From Bilabrum cf. latius (Eukaryota), in NCBI GenBank assembly GCA_965178125.1, contig OZ237743.1, forward strand, positions 868,001 through 932,000: a stretch of 64,000 nucleotides of DNA. Direction: 5' to 3'. Both the position numbers and the translations under genes were made by a program. This document shows, piece by piece, positions 21,327-64,000 of the stretch; position 1 is the first letter of the stretch; the number at the start of each line of letters is the position of its first letter. Below the pieces are notes generated by a model. The model was given only the letters and a program-made list of their open reading frames with translations. It was not told the origin of the DNA and did not search any database.

Positions 21327-22275
21327 CTCTCAAGGATCCTCGATTTTGTCTCGAAGGGATCGAGGAGGGCTGCAGCGAAGGCCAAACGGGCGCTCGCAAG
21401 GGCGGTCCGGGAGGACTTTGCCAGCCTGCCAGTGGCTGTAGGAGCAGCCGAAAACAACAACCTCGCCGTGGCGATCGCGTCAAGGCAGGGTTGGCTCAGA
21501 ACGGGCAGCAGGACGGGGTGCCGGCAGCGGGCGCCGGAGGGAACGTGAATGCTGACGCTCCCAAGGGGGAAATGGGTCCGCAGGGTGGAGCTTAGGTGGT
21601 TTAGGCCATTGCAGCTGAAGCATGAGGTCTGGTAGGTCCCGGGCCCTCGTTCCAGATGTTTCTTCGTGATAGCGTGCGCTTTTGAGTTGAGTCCACAAAA
21701 TATCAGATCCCCCCCAGACTTTCATCTGACGACACGGAGTATGCGGTGGCTTGCCTGGCTGCAGACAAATGTAGAAGCTCAACAGGCTTGAACGGGGGGT
21801 GTATGACGCCAAGGGCACTCGTCCCTTCCGTGCAGGGGAGATGAGTTCTCGTCAATGCAGCGGTGTTTGACTGCACCGCTGCTGCGACGCATTTTGGTGG
21901 GGCCATTGAGGTCCCTGAAATTGAGGTCGCGTATCGGGCGCAGTACTCGCTCAAGGTGCAGTCTCAGATGTGATACAGCGAAGCGGAGGCGTGAGCGGTC
22001 ACAAGGCGGTCAGCCCAGTGCTTGCAGGTTGAGGTGCGGGCGTGTGGGTGATGAGTGACCCGGATCGGATAATACGGTGCTGTACCCTATTATTACATCA
22101 TAATATAATACTTATATACCTCCACTCATTACACCCCATTTATTTTGTCGCGTATATTGACCACCCGAACCCGAACCGGTCTGCGTGGCCGTGGATCCAA
22201 GCGGCGGTACTCGGGCCCACTATCGTGATCCCTTAGCACCTCCCAGTGACAGCCAGAAGAACCAATTCCCACGCC

Positions 22276-23655
22276 TCATCCATCATCGTGAGGTACTTTC
22301 TGCAGCCACTATTCCATAGTGGGTCCCCAACCCGGGCTGCTCGTTCGCTCCTCCACGACCCCCGCCGCATGCTCCTCCACATCCCAGGCCGCATGCTCCT
22401 CTACGACCCCCGCCGCATGCTCCTCCACGACCCCCGCCGCATGCTCCTCTTCGGCCCCCGCCGCATGCTCCTCTTCGGCCCCCGCCGCATGCTCCTCTTC
22501 GGCCCCCGCCGCATGCTCCTCCACGACCCCCGCCGCATGCTCCTCTTCGGCCCCCGCCGCATGCTCCTCTACAGCCTCCCACCGGCGTGCGCCTCCCGTG
22601 GCTTGCTAGTCTGACTTACTAGCAGCACCATCCTACGATACGGGGCCTACAGGCCGATAGCTCGATACCGTGAACGCCGTATTCTTGTGCAGCTGCTCCA
22701 CCAGGTATCGCAGCAGGCCCTGGCAGATCTCCTGGGTGGGGCACGCCTTGCAGATCCATGGGTGCTTGACCACGGCGGCTGCTTCCAGCCGGCGCATCGG
22801 GTCCACCTGCAGCAGCCCCTCGATCAGCTGCCTGAAATGAACTGCGTGTGGATCGATCTTGATCTTGGAGGCCTTGAGATGCCTGGACCAGAACACGTCC
22901 ATCTCCGCCTTGCTCCCCCGCTTGATGCAGCTGAACCAAGGGTCCTCGTCTGATGCTACACGGCACGGCGGTCTGCCGACCACGAGGATAAATAACAGCA
23001 CCCCGAGGGACCACATGTCCGCCTTGGCTGGATTGTGCTCCTTTTTCTCGAATGCCTCCGGGGCCGCGTAGGCGCGAGTGCCGCCCCGGTGTTTGGTCGG
23101 CCGCGGCCGCTGATCGGAGCCATGAGTTGGCATACAGTGCGATAAGCCACCGATTCTTGCACCGTACTCCTCGTCGATGCGGATGACTTCCAATTTCAGG
23201 TCTTTGTGAGCAATTTGCCTCCGATGGAAGTCCCTCACAGCAAGAAGAATCTGTCGTGCCAAATGTATGCTCAAGCCTGTCGTTCCCAAGCCGCCAAAAC
23301 CCTTCACGATATCGAACAGATTGAAGCGCTAGTGCGGACCAAAAATCATCGTTCTGATTTCCCCGTCGGCTCGTGAGCGCTTCAACGAAACAGGAGGCAA
23401 CGGTACACGCTGGACAACGTGGCGATGACTTCCTACTCCGCTGCAAACAAGGTCCACCTTCTAGAGCGTGACTGCTCCCGCCCTCTGTGCTCTTAAATAT
23501 TCGAAATACTACGGTGATTGTCCCGGACAGCTACGCTGGCACCCTCCAGAGGATAATGCAGCATCGATTGTTGCCACTGTGAGCACTGTGACCCCCCACC
23601 CTATGATTTCCTGATTTGGAAAAGTCCATCGCTACTCCAGGCGTCTTTGGCTCAT
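22276..23655 (-). CDS. Pseudokinase copy D (N-terminus shared with copy A, C-terminus shared with copy C)
   Basis: ATG 23655 (MSQRRLE...) in frame through several TAG to TGA at 22276; same kinase motifs. Confidence 0.72.
22345..22572. repeat. 24-bp coding minisatellite, 9 units
   Basis: Same unit as 20265-20420, three units longer. Confidence 0.9.
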
Positions 23656-23893
23656 GGATTCGCTTGTCTTTTTGCCAAAGTGCTGGCTCGTATTGATGGC
23701 AGGAGGCTAGTGCTACCCAGTAGCCTACTAGTAGGCCTAGGGTGAAGGTTCGTCAAATCCGGATTGGAGCCGCCGAACCGGAACCCTCGCGAACCGCCAA
23801 CGGACATCGCGGCTCGCACGCGAGGCAGCAGAAGTCCCGAATCCTCCGTTCCGTAGCGGACCAATCTGATCACATATTTAGTCAACAACCGTT

Positions 23894-29724: not shown

Positions 29725-29925
29725 CTGGACAACAGCGTGCCGCCACGTTCACCAGGCCTGCGAGGGTATAGGTGTCCCGGGCGAGGGATCCTCAGACGCC
29801 TATCGACGGACGCTCCAGGCCCGAGGCGAGTCCGCAGTGGGTCTTCGCAGCCTTCGTCTTGCATCAAGCGTGCGTTTGAAGGAGTTTGCAGCTTTCGTTT
29901 TGTATCAAGCGTGCGTTTCTCTGCA

Positions 29926-31257
29926 TCACCGTTTGCCCGCCACTATCTCTAGGGGCTTCCCGGCTCTGAATCCGATGCCTTGCAGCCATCGAAAGGCAGT
30001 CGGGGCGTCATTCTCTGCCTTGGGCGCCTTGCCCTTCGACGCCTTTACGCCCCTTAGCTCAATGCAGCCATCGTGCAGACCAAGCCAAACCGTCTTGCTT
30101 TTCTTGTGCAGCAGCAGCGCGGGCACACTGGCGTCTCGTAGCAATTCCCACGCCTCTTTCGCTACCACAGGGTCGCTACACTCGCAATACGGCTCTGGTG
30201 GTGGTGGGAATTCCTGCAGAAGTGCACCAAAGTCTACAGGAGCAGTATCATGCCCTTCTGCATCTGTATTCTCCTCTTCTCCGCTCCTCCGCCCAGCGGT
30301 CCCCTGTTCGTGCGGCTGCCCCTCTGCCCACCCAGGGGGATACCTCACTGCGGTCACCGTGACTCGCACCGTGCTGTCGCCCTTGCCCGGTGCCCGCAGA
30401 TCAAAGACGGTCTTGATCATGCCATCGTGACCCCTCCACCTGCGGATGAATTCATCGAGGCCAAGGTCGGCAGTGCCACCATGATCACTTGCGCCCTTAC
30501 CATCAGCATCCCCACCTTTCGCGGCCGGCGCGATGATGCCGTCTTCCGGCGTGGTCTTTCGGGTCCAGGTGACCGCCGCTTCGTCTTGATCCATGGCAGA
30601 GGGCAGCTCACCGTGCTCCAGCAAGTGGTTCATCACAGACCCCGTCAGTGATCCGCCTGCCTCCGCCAAGCGCGGCCTCAGTGTCGAATGGGTGTCGAAT
30701 GGTGTCAATGGTACTTCAGCCTGTCGTACAACCGAGCCTTTGTCAAAGACTTCTGGATGAATCATGCAGACCGACACCCCCGCGATCCTGTCCCCAGATA
30801 GCAAGGTGCCGGCAATCGGCGAGGCGCCGCGATGCCGAGGCAGCAGCGATGGATGCATGTTAATTGATCCTAGTCTCAGCAAACGCAGCAGGCTCTTCGG
30901 AATAAAGTACCCAAAACTAACTACAACGCCAATGTCGTACTTGTAGCCCCCATTTGCGCCAGCGAGCGGATCCATCTCTCGCAACCACCTCCCGAGCTTC
31001 CGAGTGCCACTGGGAATCTCGATTGATCTCAAGCCTAACTCGCTAGCTGCCATTTGTACTGGCGTAGTTTCAACTACTCGGCCACCAAACCGCTATCGTG
31101 GAGCCGGGCAGAGGACATCAATTTCTAACTAGTTCAATTGCTACAGCTTGCGTAGGCTTGGCACAGCAACATCGTCAGTTCCCATGAACAACACGCGCAT
31201 ATTCTCAATACTCCTGGATGCAGAGCTGGACAAGCACCTCCTCAATATTCTCTGCAT
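29926..31257 (-). CDS. MTFMT: Methionyl-tRNA formyltransferase, mitochondrial
   Basis: Presequence, RVLFMGT..AVPSL, VVSFGYFIP, INMHPSLLPRHRGASPI, FDKG. Three TAG (31141, 31129, 31093) lie within the N-terminal domain; ends TGA. Confidence 0.9.
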
Positions 31258-31591
31258 AACGAATGGCGGTACACACGCCAGCCAGTGTCTCAGTGGACGG
31301 TGCATCCGGGGAACCTTGGGATCCACGGCACCATGCACTGCAGGTGCAGTTCGGACCGCTTGTGTTGTGTTTGTACCCAGCAAAACACATTAATAATGCT
31401 CCAGCGGGCACTATGGCGAGGCTGTACACAAATTCAGCGATGGAAGGCAACGTTGGCAAGCAAGCTTCAGCCGACAGACCCTTCGTTACAGGCTTTCAAG
31501 TCGCGAGGGTGAGGCAGTCCGTGCTAGTCGCATGTAAACCTAGATTTGAAAAACCGAAGAACCTCTTATTTATGTTTTGACAGATTTGAGC

Positions 31592-32527
31592 ATGGGCCGC
31601 AGGGGAAACTGCATCCTCCACTCAGTTGAGCTGCCAGAAGGATCGGCGAAAGGAATCGCCGTGTGCATCCATGGAGCTCCTGGATCAGTCCGAGATTTCC
31701 GTCACGTATCTCCAAGACTAATGAGTAGAGGAATCGCTGTAGTAAGGTGTAATCTACCTGGTCACGCGGGCAGCACGCCTCACTAGTCATTCCTTCCTAG
31801 TCCAAGCGCATACGCGGCAGACATGGAGCAACTGCTCGGGCATGTGCGGGCGCAGCACTCGGGGCAGCTGGGTTCAGTCCCTGCTGCTGTTGTGTCCCAC
31901 TCACTGGGCGGGGCTGTTGCCCTTCAGCTACTGCACCGCTCCGTGGAGACCAGGCAAGCGGCAATGTCAGGCAGTGCAACACCGGCACTGGATTCCCGTG
32001 GTCAAGCTGTGGGCCCGCAGGCAGGAGGGCAGGCGAGCAGCATTACGGGTCAGCTATTTCATGCAGGCGTTTTTCTATCGTCCGTCGGCTTGTCGCCTCA
32101 CCGGGGCATCTAGCCGTACCAGGTGGTTCGAGCACTCGGGCATATGCTCGACTGGCCCCTCCTGGGGCGGGTCCTGATTGCACCCGGGCTGCGATCCATC
32201 TTCGTGCACATGCTTGGGTTTTCACCGTCTTTGACAGTTGCCGAGGCAGACGTGTCCCATCGGCGGGTGGTGCTCGTTGATTTCGAGGAGCAGCGGAGGG
32301 CCGCAGCTGCGATCGGGGCATCCGGGCGATTTCCGGCCGGGAGCTTGCAGTGCCTGTACGCCACGGACGATCACCTGATGGAGATCGATGTGTTGGAAGG
32401 ACTGGAGCATGCACTTGGAGCGAAAGGCACGCAATTTTCGAAGGGAGGCCACCACGCGCCAGTGAGAACGCAGCACGCAGACGTGACTGCGGATGCAGTA
32501 CTTGAGGCCATTTCCAGTGTTAGTTAA
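31592..32527 (+). CDS. Alpha/beta-fold hydrolase; true start uncertain, possible upstream exon
   Basis: CIHGAPGSVRDFRH, NLPGHAG, nucleophile elbow SHSLGG, DDHLM, GGHH. Three track ORFs joined by TAG at 31784 and 32111; ends TAA. Confidence 0.8.
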
Positions 32528-33153
32528 CGCGAGTTGTATATCAAGCAGCTATTGGCTGAGCACATTCATTTGGCCAAAGCGTCTTTATCCGTGGACGGAC
32601 AGGCATGCAGTTTCAGAGGGACGATCGAAACTGCAGTTTTGCGGGCGTCACACGGGGCCAAGTTTGAAAGATGAAGACACGATCGAGGCCGAAACGAACC
32701 GTGTGGTCCCGTGGCACACTTCAACGTAATTTGAACAGCACATCTTCTCATCTAACTTGGCAATATATACAAGTATTACTATTATGGTGAGATTGGACGT
32801 AGTTGTGCGTATCGTTTTGCCCTTCGGCAGCGACGATACGTCTTGCAGTTGGCTGACGTACTTCAATCACTCACAAGAGCCTTAACTAAACCGAATTAAG
32901 AGACGTGATGCGACGCAATGAGTTCTATTCATTGTTTTGAATCATATGAATTAGTGTGGAAACGAAAGGAACTTCTCTATTTGGCTCCATTGGGGCCACG
33001 TCAGCGCCGTGCGGCAATCATATGAGAACCTTGCCCTGAATCTCTTGCCGTTCACCGCAGTCTTGGCTTGTTAGCTCAGCGCTTCAGCTAGTTGGTGCCT
33101 CAAAATTGAATGAAGGGTCAAATCCCGAGCCAACGTCGGCGGTAGATCTCGCA

Positions 33154-34854
33154 ATGAACGCGATACTGGGCGTCGTCACGATGGCAAAGTGGTCTGCCGT
33201 TGTGGGAGCCGTGTGCACCACCCTATCTCTGGCTGCGGTTGCCGCATACGTTCTGACTCTGCCAAAAACTCCGAAACAACTATGGGTCGATGCATTTGCG
33301 GATCTAGCCCGGTACTGGCATGGATTGTGGTACTTCATGGTCCAGGGTGGCACCTACAAGGACTGCCCCGTGTTCAAGGACGATATCCGAGCTAGGGTAC
33401 AGACCTACTCGCTCACTCTTATTTACAGCATGTGGAGCGAGCCGCACTACCGCAACGGCACCTTCCAGGTGGACATGGTGAAGAACCTGCGGAACGTGGC
33501 CATCCCAGGGACCGGCCTCCCCCTGTCGTACCTCTCGCACGTGCGCGCGCTCGTGTGGCCCTTCCTGTTCGTGGCGTACCCCGCCATCGCGTTAGTCGCG
33601 GGCATCTGGAAGGGAATCGTGCTGTCAGACGGGGGCGAGGACGACTCTGGAAGAACTGCCCCTGCCTTCGCCGAAGCAGCCGCCAAGGCATTCAGGGAGC
33701 AGCTTCTCTCTCCCCAGGACTGGTTCAGCTTCTGGAGGCTCAACTGCAGGTTGGCCACCCTGCACGCCCGCGTATCGGGCGACGAGGGCTACACGCTCGA
33801 GGACAAGCTCACCTTTTTGGAGCGAGCCGAGGACATGGACGTGCCAGTGTCTCCTTACCTCAAGTTCCCTGCCATCATCTGCAAGCACAGGAACGAGGAG
33901 GGCGGCCTTGGCTTCCAGGCCTTCAGCTCTGCCACCCACGGTGGTGACTGGATCATCCAGGAAAAGATGGCCAACTCCGCCTTCGTGTCCTCGCTGCTAC
34001 CCGAGGACGCTCCCCTTTCCACCCTCAGGATCGTGACCGCCTCCAAGCTGGGGCTGGCCCCTCTCAGGGAACAGGCAGGGGCACAGGAAGAAGGGGAGAA
34101 CAAGGGGGAAAGAGTCAGCGACAAGGAGGTGCGCGCTCTCTCGTGCGTGTTCCGAGCCGGCAGGGAGGGCGCCATCACGGACCACGAGTCCATCCTCTTC
34201 AACACAGAGATCGAGACGGGCATGGTGCTCAAGGGGACGACAAACGCGCATTGGTACAGGCTCGGCGCAGACAAGGTACTGAACGCGCAGTGGCTGTCGC
34301 AGCACAACATCACCAACCACCCAGACACAGGGCGACCCATCAGCGGCACCAACATCCCCCGCATGGCCGAGATCCGCAAGCTTGTGGAGGATGCCCACAC
34401 CAAGATGTGCCCGGGGGTGCCTCTCGTCGGCTGGGACGTGGCACTCACCGATTCCCACGGGATGGTGCTGCTGGAGGGCAACTTTTCGTGCAATTTCTTC
34501 CGCGGGACTTTCGACAAGGAGTGGTACTTTGAAATGGTGGACGAGTACTTCGCGGCTCTCGAGGCGGCCAACAGTGCCACGGGACCCAAGGGGCCCTTCC
34601 GCCCCCCGGTGGATCCCAGGGTGGCGGCGGCATCCAAGCGCAAGGCTGGGGGGACTCTCAAGTCCTTGGCCGCAGGAAAGGCAAAGACGGTGGGGGGAGG
34701 CGTCAGGAGGAGGCAGCACGGCGGCAGGGCTGCTCAGCTGAAGAGAGGCATGGTGGAGTCCAACTCGCAGACCACACTGTGCACGCACGAGTCCTCCTAG
34801 GCCGGCGAGGAGGCTTCCACGGCGGCAGAAAGGGCCAGCATGGGCTCGGACTAA
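33154..34854 (+). CDS. Membrane-anchored ATP-grasp protein (sugar-transfer-associated ATP-grasp-like)
   Basis: WIIQEK, PLSTLRIVT, HPDTGRPISG, LVGWDVALT..GMVLLEGN; N-terminal hydrophobic segments. One TAG at 34798, then TAA at 34852. Confidence 0.7.
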
Positions 34855-35575
34855 GCAAGCTGGAGAATCCCATCGTGTCTTACATGCGCATAATATATTG
34901 AAAAGGTCTTCGGCGCTGCAGCCCAAAGCACGAACCTGGGTCGCGATACCGACGGGGTACCGTGCTGGTGGTGCTGCTTGCCCCGAGATAAACCTAGCCT
35001 CATTAGCCAAGCACTACACACCAGTTGGAATCCAAATTTTGGATCAAGTAGCAAACGAGTGTCAACCTAATGGAACGCAAAGCACCAATAATTTGGGCCG
35101 CGATCACGGCTCACGACAACTGAGTGGTTCCGACTGAGACTAACCTGAGGACGCCACGTCGACGAAGAGCATGTTCGACATCCGTCACGGTCCGCGCCTG
35201 AGGAGGCAGTCCCGACCTCTGGCCGGGTGGGTCGTGCAGCATTCAGGAACCGGATGACGACAAATATCCAGGGTACCGTTCTGCGCCATGGTGCCTATCT
35301 GGAGAGGCTGCCGCAGTCTAGGCGGCATCCGTCTCCAAATACACTCCCACGCACCAATAGAATAGACTAGGCCATCGAGCTGTCGAGCTGTGCAAAAGAG
35401 GCATCATCAAGACCTAACGCAGACTATACCTTCGATCAGCCCATCAGCCGTGTCGCCGGTGCCCCCGCCTGCCGCCTGAAACACAACAAGAGTCTCTGCA
35501 GAAATATGGTAATTGTATGTGGAACTCTAGCAAGCAACTTGCGCGTCCGTACCTAATTGTACTCTCATTCAGGAT

Positions 35576-36790
35576 TTACGAAGCCTTTCCTTTCCCTCCA
35601 GTTGCCCCTGTGGCGCCAGAGGAAGCCCCATCAACGAGGATGACGATCTTGCCCGAAGAGCCCCCGGCCTGCTCAATCACAGCCCTGTGAGCCTCGGCCG
35701 CAGAAGCCGCAGACAGGCCATGGATCTCCTTGCCCACGTGTGGCTGTATCGCACCCGATGCCATCCCAGCGGTGAGCGCTGTCCGGATCTCGGTCCAGTC
35801 CGCCTCTGTGGCATGTGCCATGGCCACGCCCACGACCGAGGACTCCCTCGCCATGAGGTCTCGTGGGCTGATCGTGACATCGCCGCGGGAGCCCACGATG
35901 GCAACGACTCCGCCGTGGGCGAGCATCTGTAGGTCGGAGCCCAGGTTGGAGTTGGCCAGCATCTCAACCACGCAGTCCACCCCTTTGCCTGCAGTGGCCT
36001 CAAGGATGGCATCCAGCACCGCCTTGCCGCCGTCCCCTCGTACGTGCTTGATCGCCTCAGCCCCGTTCTCCCGTAGCATTGCGAGACCGTGGTCGCTACT
36101 CGCGGTTGCCCAGACACGATGCCCCTTTGCCCGGGCTAGCTGGACGGCAGCAACTCCAACAGCGCCGGAGCCGCCGTGGATGAGCACTGTCGCTCCATCC
36201 GAAATCTTCGCTCGCTAGAAAAGGGCCCGGAACGCAGTGCTGTATGGAATTCCAATGGCGGCTGCCTCGCTTGGGGACAGGAGGAACTCGTCGCTTGGCT
36301 TTGCCTTCTCCTCGGCAGCATCGCTTGCGTTCGACGCTGGCACCGAGATCAAGCGATCTGTAGGTGCTACAACGTACTCTGCATACGCGCCAGTTCTAGT
36401 TGATGTTGTGATAACTCTGTCACCCACGCTGACTCTGCTATCATCGAGGCTGGGAGCGCTGTCAGCAGCACCCAAAGCTACAATGATTCCACAGCAGTCG
36501 TGGCCGGGACAGAATGGAGTCTCAGGGAGGCCAGCATACGTCCCTGCTCGTATATATGTCTCAACTGGATTGATTCCAATCGCTTCCACGCGGATAAGTG
36601 CCTCTCCATCTCCAGGAGATGGCATCGGGGCGTCTTGTTGCAGTTCGAAGACCTCAGGTCCTCCAAACTTTGGCACGACGACACGGCTGTAGGCTGACGC
36701 TGCTGCGGCCGCCATGCTTCTAAGTCCAAAGATAGTGAGCGCGGAGATAATCTGGTACCGAGCTACGCTGCGAGCGCCTCTAGCTATCAT
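35576..36790 (-). CDS. NADPH:quinone oxidoreductase / zeta-crystallin-like MDR family protein (start 36790 or 36715)
   Basis: GINPVETYIRAG, PFCPGHD, GAYAEY, IPYSTAFRALF*RAKISDGATVLIHGGSGAVG, GKIV. The TAG at 36215 is mid-domain; ends TAA. Confidence 0.9.
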
Positions 36791-37069
36791 GGGCCAATGA
36801 ATCCGGGATCCGAAACTCCGAATCGCAGATCGGAGCACCTTGCCCGGCTGCGACCTGCCAGTGGTAACGATGTCTACCGATGCGGGTGTGTCCCGACAGG
36901 CCCGACTATTCGGCAGGCCATGCTAGAACGCTGCAGTGCACCTCCTTTGGCATTCAGCTCACGATAATTGAGGATTTCCTATTGGACGCAGCAGGTCGGA
37001 CAACTGAGTGTACATGCACAGCGCGATTGAATCACGGCACCGAAATAATCAATTGCCCTCCGGGTCCAC

Positions 37070-39286
37070 TCAAACTGCGGGGCTCAATTCGTCCTCCTCC
37101 TTCACAACTCCGACCCATGGCCCCCAGAACCCCTTCCAGTGGTCGACAGCCGCCTTGCACGCCAGGGGGGAATCGTGCGCGCCCCTGTCAGGCTGGAAGG
37201 CCTTGCCCTGGGCCTCCCTGATCATCTCCCGCAGCCTGGACCGCACTTCCGGTTTCTCCTTGGCGAGGTCGTGGTGCTCGTTTGGATCCGCCTCCACGTC
37301 AAAGAGGCACCCGTCCTCCCCGCAGTGGCCGATGGTAGTTCCAGCATGCACTGTGGACGAAACATTGGGGAACTGCGGGCCCTGCCACACGTCCATTGTG
37401 AGATTTCCGATGAGCAGCTTGTACTTGGTACCTGCCTCCTGGTCATGCACTACAATGCCCTGCACCAATGTACTGTTCTCGTTGCCTTTCCGTGTCTCAT
37501 GCTACCCAATCTCGAACACCTTCCTTGGGGAACGCTGCTGCTGCCCCGAGATCCAGGGCCACAGGTCCATCGAGTCGATGGGCGGCAGGCCCGCCCCCTC
37601 TGCTTTGTGATCGGTGGGGTCTACGCCAGCCAGGGAACACGAGGTTGCGTACCAGTCAAACGAGGTGGACATGTCCGTTGCGGTCGTGCCTATCTTGTCC
37701 TGGGGTACCAGGCCGCCAGTCACGAATGCGTTGACATGGATGCCGCCTTGCCAGTTGCTGACCTGCAATAAATATAAAAGGGGCAGTGCAATGCAATTCC
37801 GGGGTTGGAGTTTGGGGCTTGAGGGGCCAAGGAACCACCCAGAGCGCTGGTCGCGGATACCAAGAGCGAATCCTGGGCACTTCAGTACACGAATGTCCTC
37901 TGGCAGCCGCCAAAAAGAACGGGCAAACGTAACATGCGCAAACAAAAACTCACCTTACCGCCCCTCCTTGGGTAGTTGTTTGCACCAGCGTACCAGATGC
38001 TGCTGTCGGGCCACTTCCTCCCGCCGTCGTAGATTGGCCCCCCGTTGTCAGCAGAAGCGAACCAGGCCAGGTCCTCCCACATGCCTTTCTCCTTCAGAAT
38101 GGTCGTGATGTTCCCGATAGCCTCGTCGATGTAGTGCACCATCGCCAGGTACCTCCTTCTGCTCTCGTCCTTGACGTCCAGGAACTTCTCGTAGGTTGAC
38201 TGTGGGACCATGAGGGGCTCGTGCACCACGTGCGGCGTGTAGTACAGGAACAGAGGCTTCTCGGGGTCATGGTTCCGGAGGATATCGTAGACCTCATCCG
38301 CCAGGATCTGGTCCTCGTACTTGCAGTGCTGGGAGCCCTCGCCCACGGGGTACGGGTGGTAGGAGATGTTCGGGTTGCACGACTCGGGGCCCACGAGGTC
38401 GTAGGCAGGGCCCTCGGGGATGTGCCTGTCCGGCAGGTCCGAGTGCCTCCAAAAGTCCTTGATGCCCGTCTTGTTGCACGGGTCATCCACCATGGTGTAG
38501 TAGTTATTGGCGTGCTGCAGGTAGATCAGGCTCGAGTCGAAACCTCTACCTTTTGGGGTAGACTCGAACGAGCACATGCCAGCATCAAACTTGCCTGCAG
38601 GACGAATGGGAAATTGCTGGGGGTTTCATGCGAGATGTAAAACTCTATCATGCATTCTCATGGCCGTACAGAGCTTCCACGCGCTGTGCTCACCGACTGC
38701 ATGCGTGACGTAGCCTGCTTGCTTGAGCTTCGCAGCAATCATGGTCATGTTGCGGGGTGCACCGGCGCATATTTTTCCTATGGGAGGGCCTCGCATCATG
38801 TTCCCGTTGTCAACGTTGCAATGCACGGGGAGCCGCCCCGTCAGTACGGAAGATCGCTGCGACCTCACACAGAATTTGCATTAGCATGCAAGACGGGTTG
38901 CGATGGCTGATTCAGGTGGTCAATTAGAATAATCAGTTTAACGTACGGTTGGACTGCAGACCTGGTGGACGTAGTGGTGCCCAAGCTCCATGCCTTCTTC
39001 TTTGAAGAGCTTGTCAAAGTTAGGAGTACGAACGTCTGGGTCTGAGGCTGCGTGCACGCCTACATCTGCCCACCCCCAATCGTCAACAAGAGTCCATATC
39101 TGCAATAGGATAGAACTTGTGGTAAGTATTGGGTGAATAATAATCTGCTGACTTGCGTTTGAGTCACTTGATTTGGAATTCAATACTGAGCAGTTTCAGC
39201 CGGATCACTCTCACAATGTGGGGCGTGCTAGGTTTTGCCCACATTGTGCTTGCCAACACGATGATAGCAGTAGCGAAAGAGCGCAT
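37070..39286 (-). CDS. Secreted arylsulfatase (ARSB/ARSI-like), 5 exons; introns 39100-39214, 38857-38946, 38595-38693, 37763-37953
   Basis: Signal peptide; PHI|IWTLVDDWGWADVG; FGly motif CSPT|RSSVLTGR; GKFDAG; SADNGG; NNYPRRGGK|VSNWQGG; LFDVEADPNEHHDL. Phase-compatible GT-AG introns; TAG at 37502; ends TGA. Confidence 0.88.
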
Positions 39287-39569
39287 GCTGGGAAGGAATG
39301 AGAGCGGTGCGATTGTGACGCGCTGCTTCGAAAAAAGGAAGTGCAACTGCAGCCAACTGCCAGCAGCCTCAGCGTTGAGTTTAGTTTTGGTGGGGATCCC
39401 TGGGAATTTTGAATGTAGGGAGTTGCTCGTATTGGCTATGGCCGAAACGGAATACTCTCGACAGTTTAGTTGAAGGCGACCAATGCCACAAGCCATCAAT
39501 CTGGCCATTGCAGGGCCGCCAAGCCGTAGCGAAACACAGCATCAAGCCGAGCAGTCTTCTGCACAGTCA

Positions 39570-41765
39570 TCACAAATTAGCAGGATCTCTCTGGTTAACG
39601 GCACGCGCCACTGCTGATGCAGCCGCGGCCGCAGCCACAGCCGCTGCGCCTGCCGCCGAGGAGCCACCCAGCCCGGCAAGCCCTCCAGAGGCAGGCACGC
39701 CATGCTGCGAGAGCTGGTGCTGGTGATGTGGCATGCCCACCGCAGGCTGGTGCTGGTGAGATTGCTGCATATGTGACGAGTGCTGCTGCATCGCCGCGCT
39801 GCCCCCGGCCTGTCCGCTGCCAGCCATGTGCATGGGCATGGGCATGGACACGCTCATGGGTGCAGTCCCCACACCCGCCATGGAGGCCTGCATGGCCCCA
39901 CGGGCCGCCTGGGCCGCCTGCTGGTGGGCAGCTGCGGCCACCCTGGCCGCTTGTGAGATGTGGTTGGGCTGCCCAGTTGCCTGCGCGCCGCTCGACGCAG
40001 CGGAGGACGAGGACGAGGAAGACGACGAGTGCTGCTGGGCCCTGGAGATGGGCACGAGCTTGGCGCTGGGCTGGTAGCCCTGAGGCTGGGGCACGAGTTC
40101 CTTGTGTGCCCTGGACATGTGCCTCCGCAGGGAGGAGGCGTAGCTGAAGGTCTTCTCGCAGTGGGGGCAGGGGTACCTCCTCACGACGGGGGCGCGGCCG
40201 TCGGGACCCACCGTTGGAACAGTGACGTCAGCGCCGTGGGTCAGCTGCTCCGGCATCAGGGCAGAGTGGTTCGCCTCGATGTGCCGCCGCAGGTCGTGCT
40301 TGCGGGTGTAGCAGGCCCCGCAGCCGGCCACGGTGCACACGAAGCTAGGCCTGGGGGCATCGGACTTGCGTGGCCTCCCCCCGCCGCGACCCCTGCCCGG
40401 CGTGCGGTTGGGCTGTCCGGGCGCGTCAGCTATCCCCGGAGGTACCAGGGGCTGCAGCACGCTGGCCACCGAGGGCGAGCGGGAGCCCCTCCCGCGACCC
40501 CTCCCGCGACCCCTGCCTGCACCCCCCCGCTGTGGGGTCGACCCCTGGAGCCCCTCCCCGGCCGCTGCCCCCTCCTGATCGCTGCCCGTCCCCGCCACCG
40601 GCGCGAAGCTGGCGCCGTCCTAATGCTGGGCTCCGGCTGCAGCAGCCGCGGGTCGGGCCGCCGCTGCCGCCGCCACTGCGGCCGCCTGTGCCGCTGAGGA
40701 GGGCTGGGCCTGTCCCGACGCGGTGGAGGACAAGGACGAGGACGAGGAAGAGGGTGCCTTCGGGTCAGAGCCCACGAGGGTTGGCTGGGCCTGTCCGATG
40801 GCAGCCGCGTGCTGCTATTGCTACTGCTGGGCTGCAACAGCGGCGGCGGCGGCAGCGGCTGCTGCCACTTGGGTGGGCTGCTGCTGCTACCCCTGTGCCT
40901 GGGCCTGAGCCTGCCCTTGTGCTTGACCTTGCCTCTGCTGCATGGCCTTGGCCACATCCTGATGGCGCTGGGCAGCAGCTGCAGCTGCTACTGCTGCATG
41001 CGCCGCAGCTGCTTGTGCCATATCCTGCTGCTAGTGCGGCTGCTGCGGCAAGTGCCCCTGCATGTGGCCCTGCGCCTGAGCCTGGGCCATCGCTTCGCTG
41101 GCGGCAGCACGGGCAGCTCCCGGTGGTCCAGGCAAGACTGGTGCGCCAGGCTTGCTGTGCACGGTGTGCAGGTGGCGGTGAAGGTCCCGCTTTCGCTTGA
41201 ACCGCTTGGTGCCGCACTTGTCGCAGACGAATTGACGAGTCTCCGTCTAATGCACCTCGCGCACATGGGCCTTCAGGTGCGAACTTCGCTTGAAAGTCTT
41301 GCTGCAGTTCGGGCATTGGTGTGGCCGAGAATCGTTGTGCACCTCCTTCACGTGATTGTCTCTGTGCGACTTGTGCGTAAACGTCCGGCTGCAGTTCTAG
41401 CACTGGTACACTTTTTGAGCGCTTCCGGGCCCCGGCCCGCCCCCAACCACCCCTGGCATGACCCTCTATACCTAAAGTTGTTGGGCTTGGTGCTAGGCCT
41501 GGATTGCGGCAGCTGCAGCAGCGGTTGCAGCTTGCGCAGCTCGTGGGCCGGACACTCCGTGGCTCGGAGGCGGAGCAGGCAACCGGGCAGCCTCCATACC
41601 AGCCTGGTGCTAGTGGGACGCAGCTGTAGCAGCCTCAACAGCCCCTGCTGCAGCTGCTGCAGCAGCTGCAGCAGAGGTAGGCTCCGGTTGCAGGCTCCTG
41701 GGTCTCTTTGGATCTGGCCCTGTTTCTCTGTCATCCGGTCTCGGACGAATATGACCCGCTTGCAT
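39570..41765 (-). CDS. C2H2 zinc-finger transcription factor (5 fingers) with Gln/Ala-rich regions, ~731 aa
   Basis: YQC*NCSRTF..H..EVH, HQCPNCSKTFKRSSHLKAH, FVCDKCG..H..H, FVCTVAGCGACYTRKHDLRRH, YPCPHCEKTFSYASSLRRH. 11 TAG; ends TGA. Confidence 0.85.
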
Positions 41766-42000
41766 GGCCCCCAGTTAGTTCCCAAGGTGCTGATAAGTAG
41801 CAAATAATATTTGATATCGCCTTGTTTCCGTCGTTGCAGGCACGATGGCAAGTTTGAACGGCACTGAATAGCGAAACCAAAGGCGCCGCGGGCGCAGCGC
41901 CGTTTGACCCTGTAACGTGCTAAGTATGATAAAAACATCCGGATACAAAAACACGAATGCGAGCAGCCGAGCAAACTGCGGATCACTGATAATAGTGTGC

Positions 42001-45000
42001 ATGCATGCAACCGCTGCTGTCCCAATTATTATTTTAAGCTTGTTTGTATCCGTCTAGGCGGAGTATTAGTCCAAGGAGTTCTTGGATAATGCAGTATCTT
42101 TGGTTGCAGCAGATGCTTCATCGGATGGGTCTGCACTGCGCGCACCAAAAGACATTTCTAGGAATGACGTTTTGATGTTGGTACCAGCGGTATCTAGCAT
42201 CGAGCCGCGTTTGGCCGAAGACGTCATCAGGCCTCGCTTGGCAAGCGCTGGCATACGGGATGCGTTGTTCGGCCGAAGCCCGACGAAGCTCAATGAAGAA
42301 GACAGCGTCGCGGTTATCATGACTTACTGTGTATTTTTGCAGGATGCGTGCCCCTTTCGTCCGTTTGTTGAATCCGTGCATCGAGCTTTGGATAGTTTGG
42401 GTCGAAGGGAAGCCTTGGGGCGATTCGGCTGGCAAGATGCTTCAGTTCTGCAAAAACTTGAGGTGGCAAGCAAGTAGCATTCTCGTAGATCAGCGCAAAT
42501 GGTAGATCTTCTTCGTGCCTTGCATGAAGAGGCAGCGGCGGTTCGGGCTCGAGCTGCTGCAGCCGCCTTGGCACTGGCATCCGGACTCAGCAAGGACGGC
42601 TCGCGCCACGATGAGTTGGTTTTCTGCCTGGTTCGATTAGCAGCCAACCTTATTGGTGATATGGTTGTTTTGCAGGGCCAAACTGCCGTCAGAAGCACCA
42701 ACACTTCGGCTGCAATACACGCCAGCATCTTCGACGCGGCCGCGGCTGAGGAGCTTTTGCAGCAGTCCCTGCGAGCCGCAGAACGGAGAGCAGTGTACAT
42801 TCGCGGGCGAAGACTGCTGGCACCAGCAGCAGATCTCCTTAGCCACTGTCCTACGCCGGCAGGAAAGCCGAGATCGTCAGGAGACGCGTACTTGCGCTAC
42901 CACCAGATAGAGTCGCGCAAGCACGCAGGAGCGGCAGGCACCCCGGCGTGGGTGGCCAGCCAATGCTCCGGGAATGCAAGCATAGGTAGTTCGTCCGGTG
43001 ACGGCTCAAGCAGTCAGCCAATAAGCAAGCTATCGCCAGCGACGATCCTTGTGCGACTGGCCCGGTTCCTGGCGGGACAGCACAAGGGGGGTCCCATGGG
43101 TGCTGCGGGCGCACCTATTGACAAGAGGGGGGGCAGGCGCCGCCCGCGGAGGGATGCGCACTAGGGGTCACCAGCGAGCAGTGCCCCAGAAGCATAGCTA
43201 GATCGGTCACCTCTTAGCTGCAGGGATGCCAGCCTTGCTCAGTTGCTGGCGGGAGTGAGCTAGAGCTATCTGAACAGCCTGCACGACGCGTATGCTGGGC
43301 GGGCCCCAGGACATGAATAGAGCAGCATCAGCTATAGCACGCCTAATAGAGGCCCCGCGAACGAGGCTAGCTATGACGTCAAAGCATTGTTGGCTACGGA
43401 GGAATTGGAGCGGCGATTCGGGTGCCGCGTGCGTGAGTTGCCCCTTCCGCTGACTCTGGCCCTGGTGGACTTGGCGTGGCTATCCGGAGGTGGGCATCGG
43501 CTAAGTGGCAGCGATGCAACTAATAGTGGGCCATGCATGGACTTGGATGCTGCAAGATGCGCCGTATATGATCTCTCGAAGGCTGGCTTTGGGAAGCACG
43601 CTGGGTAGAACACAACGGCAAGTCGGACACGCAAGGGCTCGCCATTGCCGATGGGCAAGCAGGACATTGGGAATAAGTAGCCGGGCAAAAAGCAGAAATG
43701 GACAGACGAAGTACTTGTGGTACGAGCAGATCGGCCGTTTCGGCGCGGTGATACCCTCTGCGAGGACTATGGAGACCAGAGCGACTATGAGTTTGCCGCC
43801 CACCACGACTTCGTGCCTCGGCTCCTCGAGAATCCGGTCGACTGCGTGAGGCTGCCAGTCCCCGCGGTGGGTATGCGCTCCACAGAGAGCGAAGAGGCAA
43901 GACTGTCCAGCTCAGCGCAGGCAGGTGAATCGGTAGGAGGCCAGCGTGCCCATACCTGGCTCCGACTTTGGTAGCGCCAGCACGCAATCAAGTCTATGGA
44001 CGCTGCCAATGAGCACGCTGACTAGGCACCCTCTGGGCCGCAGTCAGAAAGCCTGTGCGCTCGATGTCCAGCTGGGCTCACTGATGTCGCAAGGCATATC
44101 GAGCTTGGGTGCAGCCCGCAGAGCTTGCCTGACATAGCTGCCTGTCTCGGCCTTGCAAGTGGTGGCCAAGACTCCAGAGCTGATTCGCAAGCAACTATGC
44201 TTGCTATCCTATTCGCACTACCCGCGGAAGCGAGGGACAATTTGGTTGCAGGGCTCCCCAGCAGTCCGCCGTGGAGGAGGCATAAAGAAGTGCTCGAAGC
44301 CTTGCGCATGAAACGGGGCTCAGAGCCGTGTGTCAGGCCAACCAAGCAGGACGGCGAAAGCATGCAGGACCCGCTGGCGGCAGCGCTTGCAGTACGGCTG
44401 ATGGGAGACCAGGACACGTCACTGTGTCACCAGGCCTTGCAGTCGACGAGGGAATTGGTGCAAGCTGCCAGCTCTGCGGCACAGTCTTCAGGCGCTGAGC
44501 AGTCCAGCCAAGAAGCTGTGCGTGCCGCGTCGCATGTCGGGCAGGCAGTGGTAGCGAAGGTGTGCATCGATCAAGTAGTCGGGCGCAGCAGTGGCAGCTT
44601 GCATGATAACGCCGACGGGCTTGACTTGTCACCCCTCTCATAGATGTGGAGCGTCTCAAAGTCGCCGACGCAGTGGCAGCTCGTCCAGGCATCAGCCGCG
44701 CGCCTGTCCAACCTGTTCGACTCTGACTCTGCCGCGTCGAGTGAGTTCAGGCTGGCCGGGGCATCCACCGAGCTAGCCGCCCTGGCTCTCGCCAAGCTGA
44801 GGACTTTCCCCACTGACTTGGACCAGGATGCTGCGATTCTTCGGGACGTGGACCAGTGTGAGGTGCTCAAGGAGCACGCCGATGCTTCGGTGCTCGGGGG
44901 CATCCTCGCCGGCGGGGAGGCCGGGGCAGCTGCCCTCCACCTCCCCGAGTGCCCCTCCAGCATCGAAGGGGCCAGGAATGCGATCCGATTTAGGATGGGT

Positions 45001-47547
45001 AGGAAGGTGCACCTAGTCAGGCTACTTCGGTCTGCTTTGACTGCGACGATGGGGGCGATAGGCAGCGGCGCGCCAGTGGACGCAAAGGCCCACCTGTCTC
45101 TGCTGCCAGGCGACTCTGCTGTTCGCCGGGCCCTCACGGTGAAGTTTTCAACTCTTCAATAGTTGGCGGATTTGGCACCGCGTGAACATGCGGCTATCCT
45201 AACTGATACGTTTTTGGTGTGGGATGAGCCTGGTCTTCAGCGGGGCGATCAATCTGGCGATGGCGTGGATTCCGAAGCAGTCGGAAGCTTGCAGGGAGCC
45301 GGAAGCGTGGTCAGTCAAGGTGCAATACAGGAGATGCAGAGACTGTCTAGCTCTGATGTGCTGGAAAATAGCATATGGCTAGCAAACAAGCTTATTGGCA
45401 GCAATGGTACAGGAGTCTTGACCCCATTCCGTCTCGCGAGTGCCCACGCCGGACAGGTCGTGCTGCTCGTGGCAGACAAGCACGTGAACTGGACGTGCAG
45501 CGAACAACACGCTAGGCGAGATGCAACAGCGGATGCCACTATGTGCGAGCTTCAAGTTGCAGCGGTAGGTCAGGAAGGGCTCCTCACCGTGAGCAGGATG
45601 AGACATCTGCTGCCAACTGATGCCGCTACGGGTACAAACGTGAGTACAAGTAGGGCTGGCATATACAGCGAGATGGAGCTTGTGGATTTGCAGCAAGATG
45701 CCAGCGCACCTCATGCTCAAGGCATCATGCAGGAAGGCCCGGCGTTAAACTTGGCCTCGCCCGTGGACGTGGCTCGAGCCGCATCGCACTGTAGCCAGCT
45801 TTCCACGAATGTCGTATCTGCTGCACACAGGGACTCTCGGAGCTTCGTTGGTCAGCAGATCGACCACGATGCAAAGGAGTGGGTAGGTACGCCTCAGGCT
45901 TGGGCTCAGAAGCTTGAGGGGAGCTCGGGAGGTTCTGAAGTACGTAGGGCGTTGCGCTTGCCTCACGCTATGCGGAGCTCTGTTCGGGTATCTTCACGCG
46001 AGTCTGGTACCGGTGACGAATCCAGACGGCTTGGGCACAGGACATGCAAGGATGATGCCGTTGCCCTGGCACCAGCTATAGGATGGTCGTTCCAGGACGT
46101 GGTAGTAGCCGCTCGGGTGGCCCTTGCAGCGGCTCGTGGTGCGGCAGGCATGCAGAAGCCCATCGCCGCCCAGCTCGGCGCGCTGCAGTTGCCCGTACAG
46201 CTGCTCGCCATTGAGGTGCTCTCAAAGATGCGCAGCCTGCCTGCCCGCTCATCATCGCACGCTGGTACCCGGAAGAATAATCGCTTGCTCCCGACTTGTG
46301 GCCGATGGGACGCTGCACACTTGTGCGCGATGGCAGCTGGACAGGGTGGCAGGGCCTCGGCGCGGTCAAGCATCGAGCGTGTGGTGCTTGCTGTGCTTGG
46401 CATGGATCTGAAGCGCCCTGATAGCTCGAGATGCCTCTGGTCGCATATTGCTGATGAATGCCAGTCCTTCGGTCTCTCTGTTAGGAATGACTCTGCAAGG
46501 CTTAGTTGCGCAAGCTACGCATTTGGGGACGACTTCGAGTCGCTTCTGGCTGTCGGGGCTGCCACGCTTGCTGCCATCGATGCTTCGTCCGTTGCATTGG
46601 CAGTGGAGCCTGCGTACGTCCCTCTCAGCTCGTTCCTGTGGGGGGATGCAGCGTACTCCAGCGATCGCCACGCCTAGTTTGGGTGCTTTGATAGTGCTTC
46701 AAGCGGTTTCGAACTGGCTGAGCGAGGGGTTGTGGAGGCCAATGACTCCCAGGTCTCGCTGTATCTCTAGCAGAACGGGTCCATCATGATTCGGTACGTC
46801 GGCGAGGCCTCATTAGGGGCACTTGAAGGGACTCACGGACAGGGCAAGCATGGGAAGCGGCTCCCCACACAGGTGCTGCGCGGGGAAGACCTACGGTCTG
46901 CGATCGACTCGAGCGGCCTGCAGCCCAGGCAGTCTCTGGGGGAGCCATACGTGCCTGCAGCTGTTCCGACTTTGCGAAGGAACAAGCACCGATGGATCAG
47001 GGGTAGGCTTGGGCCTGCCGTATTTCAAGGGTCCAGGCACGATGCCAGGCTGCTGAGCCGAGCTTGGACGCACGGTATCCGCAGTATGGAGCTGGAGCTA
47101 GTGCTGAGTCCTGCAGCTAGGCATGCCGTGCACGTCACAGCGTCGGAGGCCATGGTCCTACTAGCGGGTATTTTCACAGTGACTGGGGACGGCAGTGGCA
47201 GCGAATCGAGGCTGGTGGCCGGGGTGCAAAGGCTTGAGAGCCTCGCAGACTCGGCCGAGATGAAGCATGCCGAACTGCACCAGCCAATTTCTCTCCTGCG
47301 CGCACTGGGTGGGTTGCATAGCAGTGCCATGGCGCAGCTGTGCCTGTCTCGCCTGCTTGGGGACATTACCATCGAGGGGTCCAAGGCAGGGAGTAGTGCC
47401 CAAGAAGGCACCGTGTGCTGGAACTCGGCAAGTCCCGACCAAGGCAGCTCGGGTGTGACGGTGCAGCCAGCCAGGTGCGTGTCGTGCACGGATGGCATTG
47501 AGGCCGAGATCTCTAGTCTCGAAGACAGGCTACTCGAGTCGTTCTAA
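42001..47547 (+). CDS. Large SET-domain (SETD3/Rubisco-LSMT-like) protein with an N-terminal signal-peptide-like segment, ~1848 aa
   Basis: Eight track ORFs in one frame joined by 15 TAG. LAPAADLLSH, VRADRPFRRGDTLCEDYG..DFVP..ENPVD, LRTFPTDLDQDAAIL, AIRFRMGRK. Ends TAA. Confidence 0.75.
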
Positions 47548-47740
47548 TGCTCTGAGCACCCAGTCGCAAGCATCTGTCGCGATATGTTCAGGATCAAATC
47601 CGGATTGAGGAAGCCTGCAGATTTCGGAGTTCCGTGGGCTTTGCAGCAGCTGTGGATCTATCCATTTTTTTCCAGGTGTGATTACACTTAACGGTTTCGA
47701 ATTAATGGGATCAGCAACGAACATCAACATCATTATCACC

Positions 47741-49315
47741 TTATTGTCGCCGGGAACGCGGCATAATCTCGGACATGAATGCTCGGAAGGCTGCTGCGTC
47801 AGTGCCAGCACACGCGATACCAGCTCCGCTTTCTGCCACTCGCCGACCAATCATCGAGTCAACGCGTGAATTTCCGCCTGAAGCAGCCACGCTAGCAGCA
47901 ACCACAAACACTACGAATCCGAGCGGACCCAGCCCCACTGTAGCCCTCGATTGCCTTGCGCGCCCCGCCACCACCCGCTGCACAGCCGCCTCCACGTCCC
48001 GCACCGACGCGGGAGCCAGCGCAGGGCAAGCATTCAACACTGCCTGGCTTTCACCGATGTACCCTGCCTCTGCAACGGCACCTGCCTCGCTCCCCCACGC
48101 TGCCGGTCCCTCCGAATGTCTGCCAGCAGTGGCTGGTGCCAGCCTCGAGCTGCCTCTATCTGCCCCGCTCCCCCACGCTGCCGGTCCCTCCGAATGTCTG
48201 CCAGCAGTGGCTGGTGCCAGCCTCGAGCTGCCTCTATCTGCCCCGCTCCCCCACGCTGCCGGTCCCTCCGAATGTCTGCCAGCAGTGGCTGGTGCAAGCC
48301 TCGAGCTGCCTCTATCTGCATCGATATCTCGCTCCAGTCGCGACAGTCCTAGGTCTGTCTTTGATACCTGCATCGCCCTGACTTGCATTCCCCTGTATGC
48401 ATCCACCAGCAGGCCGAACACGTGCTAGAGCACCCGCTCTCTCACCGCTGGCTTACGCGGGTCCTTACCGCGCACAGCTGCAATGCAAGACTGCGCCGTG
48501 ACCCAGATGCAGCTAGCGTCCTTGCATCCCCTGTGCACCTTGTGCTCCGCAACATCGCGCCATCGCATGAACAGGCGCCAGAGCTGCTTGCTGTGCTTCT
48601 TGACGATGCAGTGGCCGGTTGGGGAGCGCAGCAAGATCATGGCTCTCTCAAGGGCGTTCTGCGCGCGATGCCAGTGCACCGTGTGCTTGGTATCACTTGA
48701 AGCGAATCGGTTCAGTTTTGGCGTCGTCTTTCTTTCGGCTGCCCGCAGCCTAGCAGCGTATGGTGGTGAAGCATCGTGTGGCAGGGTCCTCGGCGCGATC
48801 TCGAAACTCAAGCGGCGCTAATGGCAAGGAGAAGGTCCTCGGCCTGTTCCATGTGATTGATACTGAACACCACTGTCTCGGATCGTGACACCATCTACAT
48901 GGATATCTTCCCCGCTAGTGTGAGCAAGGCAGCTTTGGCGGGGCTCTGCTGGTCGAGGTGACGTTGAGCCTTGCCAATCGTTCCACTCGGTGTTCCGTCC
49001 TGCAATCGACTACCAACTGTACTATAAGATACTATCATCACTACCAGGCCTTCGACGGGTGTCGGAAGCGGATGATGATGCTAGGGATTGTTCGCTGGTC
49101 ATAGCAGTTGATGTGGCAGTGACATCTGCATTCTATGAGCCGTCACAGGGGATCACAGCGCCGACATCGCAAGCTTCTCCTGACTACGTACGACTGCAAT
49201 CCTCCTCTGTGCTCTTGCTGGAGCTTCTTCTGAACAAAACAACCGACACGATGGCAGAAAGAGCTACGCCAACGGACGCACCCGCGAGATTCTGTGTCGT
49301 AAGAGACGACGACAT
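47741..49315 (-). CDS. Hypothetical membrane protein (~524 aa) with a 26-aa internal repeat
   Basis: ATG 49315, N-terminal hydrophobic helix GASVGVALSAIVSVVLF. In frame with track ORFs 48425 and 47741 via TAG; ends TAA. Confidence 0.55.
48087..48320. repeat. 78-bp tandem repeat x3 (ADRGSSRLAPATAGRHSEGPAAWGSG)
   Basis: Three near-identical contiguous units at 78-nt spacing. Confidence 0.9.
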
Positions 49316-51720: not shown

Positions 51721-54401
<2,681 letters not shown>

Positions 54402-63743: not shown

Positions 63744-64000
63744 TAGTTCGCGACTGCGTGTATGTTACCCATGTCTGCGGCTTCAATCTGCTGCCCAGTT
63801 GCAAGGCCTTGGCTCTGACCCTCTCGAGTCGGCCCAAGCGCCACCTCGGAGCAGAGCAGACTGCAAGAGGACGGTGCCGTTCGGGCGTGCGTAGGTGTGG
63901 TGCAGCGGGGGCTGATCCATCCGACGGGAGGTGTGTTGCTGCGTATTGACTTTTTAACTCTCAATTGTGCGATTCCAAGGCCAGCCCCACTTTCCCCACC

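Follow-up and report, generated by a model that had tools for sequence, protein, structure and literature searches.

Reassignment of a stop codon to glutamine is the commonest change of the nuclear genetic code, and in the accessible text of two studies of such variants it nearly always involves UAA and UAG jointly (PMC5304391, PMC11687900). The same text describes changes of UAG alone, with UAA kept as a stop, to glutamine in Iotanema spirale, Protocruzia tuzeti and two lineages of phyllopharyngean ciliates, as well as UAG-only changes to leucine in the rhizarian exLh and to serine in Scotinosphaera (PMC5304391, PMC11687900). Here we describe a gene for a C2H2 zinc-finger protein, located on the minus strand at 39570..41765 of a 64-kb stretch of contig OZ237743.1 (hereafter the window), which contains 11 in-frame TAG codons. 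We propose that this gene is read with a nuclear code in which UAG has changed from stop to glutamine, with UGA and UAA still serving as stops, most likely in a bicosoecid-like stramenopile, and that its TAGs are ordinary minor glutamine codons, a reading that we consider very likely as a whole. The combination of UAG as glutamine with UAA and UGA as stops is what we take to be the pattern of NCBI translation table 15.

The code resembled the Iotanema type in every feature tested here, with UAG alone reassigned, its meaning changed to glutamine, and UAA retained as a stop. TAG is a minority glutamine codon in both cases, at ~13% here versus ~8% as given for I. spirale in the accessible text of PMC5304391. 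The host is different, as it appears to be neither a fornicate nor a ciliate, but an organism near Cafeteria with a mitochondrial F1 ATP synthase beta and an intron-poor genome of 60% G+C.

The zinc-finger gene and its in-frame TAG codons

The minus-strand frame at 39573-41774 spans 734 codons without a TGA or TAA and includes the 11 TAGs; with a six-frame TGA+TAA frequency of 0.017 per codon, the chance of 734 codons being free of both is P ~3.4e-6. The coding sequence starts at the ATG at 41763-41765 and ends with the TGA at 39570-39572, and translation with TAG as glutamine gives a protein of 731 residues, which is rich in Q, A, G and S (A 21.6%, Q 11.8%) and contains long A, Q and S tracts. 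The read-through protein matched the Pfam zf-C2H2 family (PF00096) with E = 2e-20 and 72.4 bits (cut-off 25.2). Finger 1 (YQC-TAG-NCSRTFTHKSHRDNHVKEVH, 41337..41408) and finger 2 (41250..41321) were recognised by Pfam as well as by the spacing pattern, finger 4 (40266..40343), which is of the C-x4-C type, by the spacing pattern, and finger 5 (40104..40175) formed the best Pfam stretch (residues 534-557). These four have the canonical C-x2-4-C-x12-H-x3-5-H spacing, whereas the C2H2-like finger 3 (FVCDKC...H..H; FVCDKCGTKRFKRKRDLHRHLHTVH) at 41157..41231 (codons 182-206) has a Cys-His spacer of 11 residues, with both spacer and coordinates derived by hand from the translation. The stretch directly before finger 4 (40365..40514) has an RG repeat (RGRGRGRGRG) at 40485-40514 and the motif GRPRK at 40365-40379, and the latter is similar to what we take to be the AT-hook core. 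We read the locus at 39570-41765 as an intact, transcribed and intron-less gene, whose five-fingered C2H2 product is rich in Q and A and resembles a transcription factor. Of 220 candidates in a protein search with fingers 1-3, two matched, both of them generic zinc-finger proteins of animals and neither an orthologue; the TAG columns compared with homologues below therefore all come from other genes, as the zinc-finger gene yielded no homologue to align.

Counted from the start of the open frame at 41774, the TAGs are codon 55 (41610..41612, context H-TAG-H-Q), codon 94 (41493..41495, Q-A-TAG-H-Q-A-Q-Q), codons 101 and 103 (41472..41474 and 41466..41468, the first and second TAG of Q-Q-L-TAG-V-TAG), codon 126 (41397..41399), located between both cysteines of finger 1 (C-TAG-N-C), and codon 176 (41247..41249), which is the first linker residue past finger 2 (H-TAG-T-E-T). 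Further downstream, codons 248 (41031..41033, TAG-Q-Q) and 296 (40887..40889, TAG-Q-Q-Q) each start a Q run, codons 318 and 320 (40815..40823) are within the run Q-Q-TAG-Q-TAG-Q at 40812-40829, and codon 385 (40620..40622, Q-H-TAG-D) is the last TAG of the gene. This last TAG forms the upstream limit of the only part of the frame present in the standard-code open reading frame (ORF) listing (table 11, minimum 80 aa), an ORF of 349 aa at 39570-40619 with fingers 4 and 5.

A preliminary description of the locus had reported TAG within polyglutamine tracts and inside a finger, and the minus-strand strings that it quoted were all recovered, namely CAG CAG TAG CAA TAG CAG (40812-40829), GGG TAG CAG CAG CAG, CAC TAG CAG CAG, and GCC TAG CAC CAA GCC CAA CAA CTT TAG GTA TAG (with its TAGs at 41493-41495, 41472-41474 and 41466-41468), as was the TAG at 41397-41399 in TGC TAG AAC TGC of finger 1. 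Its list was incomplete, as three more TAGs (41610-41612, 41247-41249 and 40620-40622) bring the total to 11. That three of the five fingers are hidden in the standard-code ORF track was borne out, and five fingers are indeed present, with canonical spacing in four of them only.

The first 385 codons of the gene contain 11 TAG, 15 CAA and 31 CAG, compared with 0 TAG, 2 CAA and 27 CAG in the last 349 codons (Fisher P = 0.013). The gene is rich in TAG because its protein is rich in glutamine, with TAG representing 12.8% of its Gln-family codons versus 13.5% window-wide.

TAG as a sense codon across the window

With TAG read as a sense codon, the three longest ORFs in the window had 2910, 1879 and 1709 codons, compared with 824, 805 and 773 otherwise, and reading TAA as sense gave hardly any gain in ORF length. 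We compiled a set of 15 window genes, mostly Pfam-supported or chosen by length, which includes DRC1, a Met-tRNA formyltransferase (FMT)-like gene, a zeta-crystallin-like quinone oxidoreductase (QOR), a NUDT22-like gene, protein kinases, an alpha/beta hydrolase, an ATP-grasp protein, ATP synthase beta (atpB) and several large orphan genes. Counted from the first ATG, these genes have 91 in-frame TAG, 472 CAG and 112 CAA codons and no TAA in 13,264 codons. The Pfam domains detected on TAG read-through products include C2H2, protein kinase, DRC1 (NYD-SP28), formyltransferase and ADH_zinc_N. Throughout the window TAG is a sense codon, and the TAG pattern is a property of the genome and not peculiar to the zinc-finger gene.

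The share of TAG among Gln-family codons followed that of CAA from gene to gene (rho 0.74, n = 15), and atpB, with a third-position G+C content of 0.89, has neither TAG nor CAA. This usage fits a non-preferred synonymous glutamine codon, and any A/T-richer codon might act alike. When per-gene TAG density was compared with residue densities, Q was outside the top six, a comparison that is uninformative with 15 genes.

Upstream of its kinase domain, the kinB frame has five TAGs in 11 codons of its N-terminal part (23700-23760, minus strand; P-TAG-A-Y-TAG-TAG-A-T-G-TAG-H-TAG-P-P), and this stretch may be an untranslated leader or an intron instead of coding sequence.

A related locus was recovered by a metagenome scan with an insertion of ATP synthase beta that is described below. 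This single locus, a 12-kb contig (L001) of a sister species, is syntenic with 43.7-55.0 kb of the window, with a DNA identity of 87% for atpB and ~70% for its neighbours. It also requires TAG read-through, with ORFs of 1374, 736 and 556 codons containing 14, 7 and 8 TAGs, respectively. Judging from the synteny, an orthologue of the zinc-finger gene may be present further along the sister contig, beyond L001.

Transcript-like contigs over the zinc-finger gene

Contigs of four sequencing runs from several studies (X1, X5, X6 and X7) were compared with positions 29900-47600 of the window. Run X1 gave long unspliced contigs, and runs X5, X6 and X7, which come from other studies than X1, gave gene-sized contigs with spliced joints. 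These joints were located at 31507/31602 and 32785/33060 and, within a minus-strand gene at 36992-39300, at 37760/37952, 38593/38693, 38856/38947 and 39099/39215; all were found in X5-X7 and none in X1, and their borders were GT..AG for the plus strand or CT..AC for the minus strand. A loose T run in X5 at 36992 corresponds to the expected poly(A) end of the minus-strand gene. The spliced joints and the loose T run are the basis on which X5, X6 and X7 were classified as RNA, a guess of the comparison tool; none of the listed runs is on record as RNA.

Across the zinc-finger gene, a transcript-like contig of 2479 letters (X5, record 13) covered 39379..41857 on the minus strand with 0 other letters and 0 gaps, and records 18 and 19 of X6 covered 39614-40517 and 40567-41856 with 0 other letters, a count that is limited by the loss of rare variants from contigs. 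We therefore conclude that the zinc-finger gene is transcribed as one unspliced message which keeps all 11 UAGs, with the runs only guessed to be RNA.

These contigs bear on the possibility that the TAGs are true stops, in a pseudogene or in a gene from which they are removed by splicing or by U-to-C editing, since the standard code breaks the zinc-finger frame 11 times. The transcript-like contigs of three runs are unchanged and unspliced here, yet the same runs splice neighbouring genes, and such letter-identical, unspliced contigs therefore exclude editing, introns and a pseudogene. The absence of TGA and TAA over the 734 codons also contradicts such an explanation, as does the fact that all long genes of the window, and those of the sister species too, have the TAG pattern, and we give it next to no credence.

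The neighbouring gene at 36992-39300 has at least four short introns, at the joints listed above and bordered by CT..AC when read on the plus strand, in addition to its poly(A)-like end in X5; no other gene seen in this intron-poor window has as many introns.

Probable assignment of TAG to glutamine

Comparison of the window with the sister-species contig was based on four orthologue pairs with 2565 aligned columns and 30-50% identity, in which 42 columns had TAG on one side. The commonest partner was Q, in eight columns; A, R, D and G each occurred four times, S and V three times, K, P, I and H twice, and N, M, E and T once. A likelihood based on the substitution counts of the same alignments placed Q first at flank-identity cuts of 0, 0.3, 0.4 and 0.5, with a posterior of 0.95-1.0. 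We also calculated for each residue the number of conserved columns predicted if TAG were a codon for that residue at its observed share; the eight TAG:Q columns agreed with the 9.2 expected, whereas the counts for E (1 observed, 11.5 expected), L (0 and 20.6), S (3 and 12.2) and W (0 and 10.7) fell short, and K (2 and 4.1) was the least well excluded. The Gln-family columns consisted of 24 Q:Q, 8 TAG:Q and 0 TAG:TAG, which matches a synonymous codon used at ~13-17%. The code shares with exLh and Scotinosphaera the decoupling of UAG from UAA, and differs from them in the residue, as only 0 and 3 of the 42 columns have the Leu and Ser of those lineages.

Within the window, the three kinase paralogues have 13 TAG columns, five of which have a sense codon opposite, this being CAG in three, GAG/GGG in one, and ATG in one at a poorly aligned ORF edge. 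An exhaustive search with part of the gene g41908 returned 15 proteins, among them four fragments with 88-97% identity to the window; these fragments of a close relative have Q, Q and K at three TAG columns, and one of them ends right before a TAG of the window, as would be expected from a standard-code gene caller. A metagenome scan with g41908 gave 45 pattern matches but no relatives, and a protein search with g26548 gave no matches among 8000 candidates.

Codon context was analysed in the 15 window genes. Codons flanking TAG were CAG or CAA in 16 of 182 cases, compared with 8.6 expected, and 58 of 5000 within-gene shuffles reached 16. In the three codons on either side of TAG, Q was the most enriched residue (z = 3.6) when the zinc-finger gene was included, and had z = 1.1 without it. 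When the three genes of the sister contig were added to the set, TAG occurred five times in Q/TAG runs of at least three codons, compared with 1.13 expected, and five was reached in 6 of 1000 permutations. The zinc-finger gene accounts for three of these runs, g55046 for one, and the sister species for the fifth, a TAG-Q6 run. There was no excess of TAG in A, G, S or E runs of the same 18 genes, where pure runs of E (11), S (20), A (45) and G (28) outnumber those of Q (4). The preliminary description had deduced glutamine from TAG in polyglutamine tracts and considered this context the strongest in-window evidence for the residue. The deduction held in the run test and was weak for direct neighbours once the zinc-finger gene was left out, the predicted enrichment beside CAG and CAA being present in the window as a whole and no longer significant on removal of that gene; the orthologue and paralogue comparisons are the stronger evidence.

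Several observations weigh against the proposed reading. Without the zinc-finger gene, only 10 of 160 flanking codons are CAG or CAA, where 6.4 are expected and 551 of 5000 shuffles give 10 or more, and the A+T-rich residues Y, F and N outrank Q within three codons of TAG. TAG and CAG are one transition apart, and mutation bias could account in part for their pairing in near-identical copies. The RNA status of runs X5-X7 is a guess of the tool only, and a tRNA scan detected no tRNA gene in the 64-kb window or in the L001 contig, which leaves the decoding machinery unseen. Among deep homologues, the lone TAG in the conserved C-terminal domain of DRC1 faces E, E, E and S in four solved chains, a column which alone would favour glutamate; in human NUDT22, three TAG columns correspond to E, R and T, FMT chains have I/L, H/Y and P, and the QOR column has H in one chain and Q in one. 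Judged from these alignments, the TAG columns of deep homologues appear too few and too variable to be of help, and do not favour Q.

The DRC1 column, with E in three of its four solved homologues, is also an argument for TAG encoding another residue, of which Glu (as in the peritrich- and Blastocrithidia-type codes) is the most serious candidate, next to Lys, Ser and Leu (Scotinosphaera, rhizarian exLh). The E at one NUDT22 column, the GAG at one kinase paralogue column, the K at one column of the close-relative g41908 fragments and the modest deficit of K columns point the same way. Against this stand the deficits of E, S and L columns in the sister-species comparison, the likelihoods, in which K, H, R and S were at least 3 to 9 log units under Q at every alignment-quality cut, and the lack of TAG enrichment in the more numerous E, S, A and G runs, and we regard a residue other than glutamine as distinctly unlikely. 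Glutamine is assigned because it is the only residue that fits all comparative tests (the paralogues, the sister contig, the close relative, the Q runs and the expected columns), and we make this assignment with high confidence. Between paralogues and between species, UAG is exchanged with CAG and CAA, and it occurs in frame inside conserved domains as well as in Q tracts.

TAA and TGA as stop codons

Of 17 window genes, 11 end on TGA and six on TAA. Past the TAA of g55046, the G+C content by codon position dropped from 0.70/0.54/0.78 to 0.33/0.38/0.36, and values after TAA are generally intergenic. The fall in G+C past TAA, the gene ends on TAA and TGA, and the lack of in-frame TAA or TGA therefore identify both as stops; TAA and TGA still terminate translation, and only TAG is reassigned.

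The reading of UAR as glutamine (table 6), known from many ciliates, ulvophycean green algae, hexamitid diplomonads, Streblomastix and Amoeboaphelidium protococcarum, is likewise a change from stop to glutamine, with the reassigned stops occurring in Q-rich tracts, as here. It is the commonest stop-to-Gln variant in the accessible text of PMC5304391 and PMC11687900, and TAA is scarce in the window (222 occurrences versus 458 of TAG), which could suggest that both TAA and TAG encode glutamine and that TAA is merely rare in a G+C-rich genome. The CAA:CAG ratio predicts ~20 in-frame TAA codons, whereas none was present in the 13,264 codons alongside 91 TAG and 112 CAA, and the six of 17 genes which end exactly on TAA show a subsequent fall of both G+C and coding signal. 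In the ATP-grasp gene, contigs of two RNA-like runs end 78-98 bases past the TAA, which is a weak hint in the same direction, and the next in-frame TGA is ~100 codons beyond. TAA as a second glutamine codon is thus very improbable.

A context-dependent code like those of Condylostoma and Blastocrithidia, with TAG read as glutamine internally and as terminator near some 3′ ends, would accommodate DRC1, where the last TAG is two codons before the TGA and approximately where the human and Chlamydomonas proteins end, and big1, where a TAG precedes the TGA by eight codons; true protein ends are invisible from contigs. TAG is needed as a stop in no gene, as all 17 read-through frames reach a TGA or TAA soon after the conserved or coding-like part, and 350 codons with two fingers follow the last TAG of the zinc-finger gene. 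We consider such ambiguity unlikely, and favour TAG as an ordinary glutamine codon.

The organism and its genome

The window has a G+C content of ~60%, and its long genes are mostly intron-less, with GT..AG introns of 90-270 bases present elsewhere. The presence of a DRC1 gene implies a flagellum. The ATP synthase beta gene (51724-53832, minus strand; counterpart at 1499-3766, plus strand, in the sister contig) is of the mitochondrial type (F1), with an insertion of ~125 residues in the N-terminal beta-barrel and a C-terminal extension of ~65 residues; the insertion has a charged and coiled-coil-like sequence. Among named sequences, both insertion and extension are shared with P0006 of Cafeteria roenbergensis (62% identity, residues 20-260); they also occur in dozens of environmental proteins, and are missing from the aligned animal and fungal ATP synthase beta proteins. 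In a quick one-gene tree, the window protein and P0001 (92% identical) formed a fully supported pair, which was sister to the clade containing Cafeteria (Shimodaira-Hasegawa-like approximate likelihood ratio test, SH-aLRT, 89). Based on this single gene, the organism is most likely a bicosoecid-like stramenopile. A search of the ESM Atlas with atpB returned only generic bacterial and plastid clusters, which were of no taxonomic use.

A green alga, initially suggested by the C-terminal extension of ATP synthase beta, was dropped as a candidate lineage, as the same extension and insertion are found in Cafeteria, and Amoeboaphelidium was rejected with a G+C content of ~40% (PMC10608142, Table 1) versus 60% here. 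The accessible text of a recent preprint gives a G+C content of ~70% and an intron-poor genome for C. burkhardae, and 46.8% G+C for Halocafeteria (bioRxiv 10.64898/2026.06.25.734631); since these values differ from the ~60% of the window, the organism is neither Cafeteria nor Halocafeteria. Cafeteria (Bicosoecida) is the nearest named relative, and both genomes are intron-poor and G+C-rich, in addition to sharing the ATP synthase beta insertion and extension. Cafeteria differs in that its public records contain ordinary full-length proteins, such as the 680-residue P0006, and no deviant code was found reported for it.

Other features of the window include a change in G+C from 0.69 at 56-60 kb to 0.47 at 60001-64000, starting right after the TAA of g55046, and segmental duplications of 92-98% identity at 10322-11288, 18832-20444, 20267-21164 and 20903-23656, which hold at least three copies of a protein-kinase gene whose product has a variable repeat of the EEHAAGA type close to its C-terminus. 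Another duplicated block (12305-13817 versus 15610-17122) overlaps with the NUDT22-like gene at its 3′ end. The gene g47744 contains three tandem units of 78 bases (48082-48319, minus strand), which are 98-99% identical and encode DRGSSRLAPATAGRHSEGPAAWGSGA, and the orthologue of the sister species aligns only loosely in this repeat region.

Proposed decoding mechanism and implications

The reassignment would probably involve a tRNA-Gln with the anticodon CUA, a single base change from CUG, for decoding of UAG, and an eRF1 that has lost recognition of UAG and keeps that of UAA and UGA. Both are suggested by analogy, because they have been described for other stop-to-Gln lineages. No eRF1 gene is located in the window or in the sister contig, and an Rfam scan of the window gave no match.

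The lineage lists in the accessible text of PMC5304391 and PMC11687900 include no stramenopile, and no deviant nuclear code was described for stramenopiles in the literature covered, in which subscription journals are poorly represented, so that a recent description may exist. The code variant is rare but known, and the lineage is probably a new addition to the few known cases of UAG being decoupled from UAA. It is possible, and we suggest it tentatively, that this is the first nuclear stop codon reassignment in the Stramenopiles, found in a bicosoecid-like clade sister to the Cafeteria group, with UAG as glutamine and UAA as a stop, and shared by at least two well-separated species and probably by a third, closer one.

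Annotation with the standard code breaks most long genes of this organism, with the zinc-finger gene losing three of its five fingers, and metagenomic gene callers already store proteins of the organism as fragments. Decoupling of UAG and UAA is rare, being known from a fornicate, a rhizarian, a green alga and a few ciliates in the accessible text of PMC5304391 and PMC11687900, and each new lineage tests ideas on how one stop codon gets captured while its near twin stays. If correct, our reading would extend these few cases by a lineage that is free-living and apparently culturable and has a compact, G+C-rich genome, and would bracket the change between close relatives with and without a reassigned UAG. 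With a sister species that has the same code, and a nearby genus whose annotation uses the standard one, there would then be a tight comparative frame for finding the accompanying changes in tRNA and eRF1.

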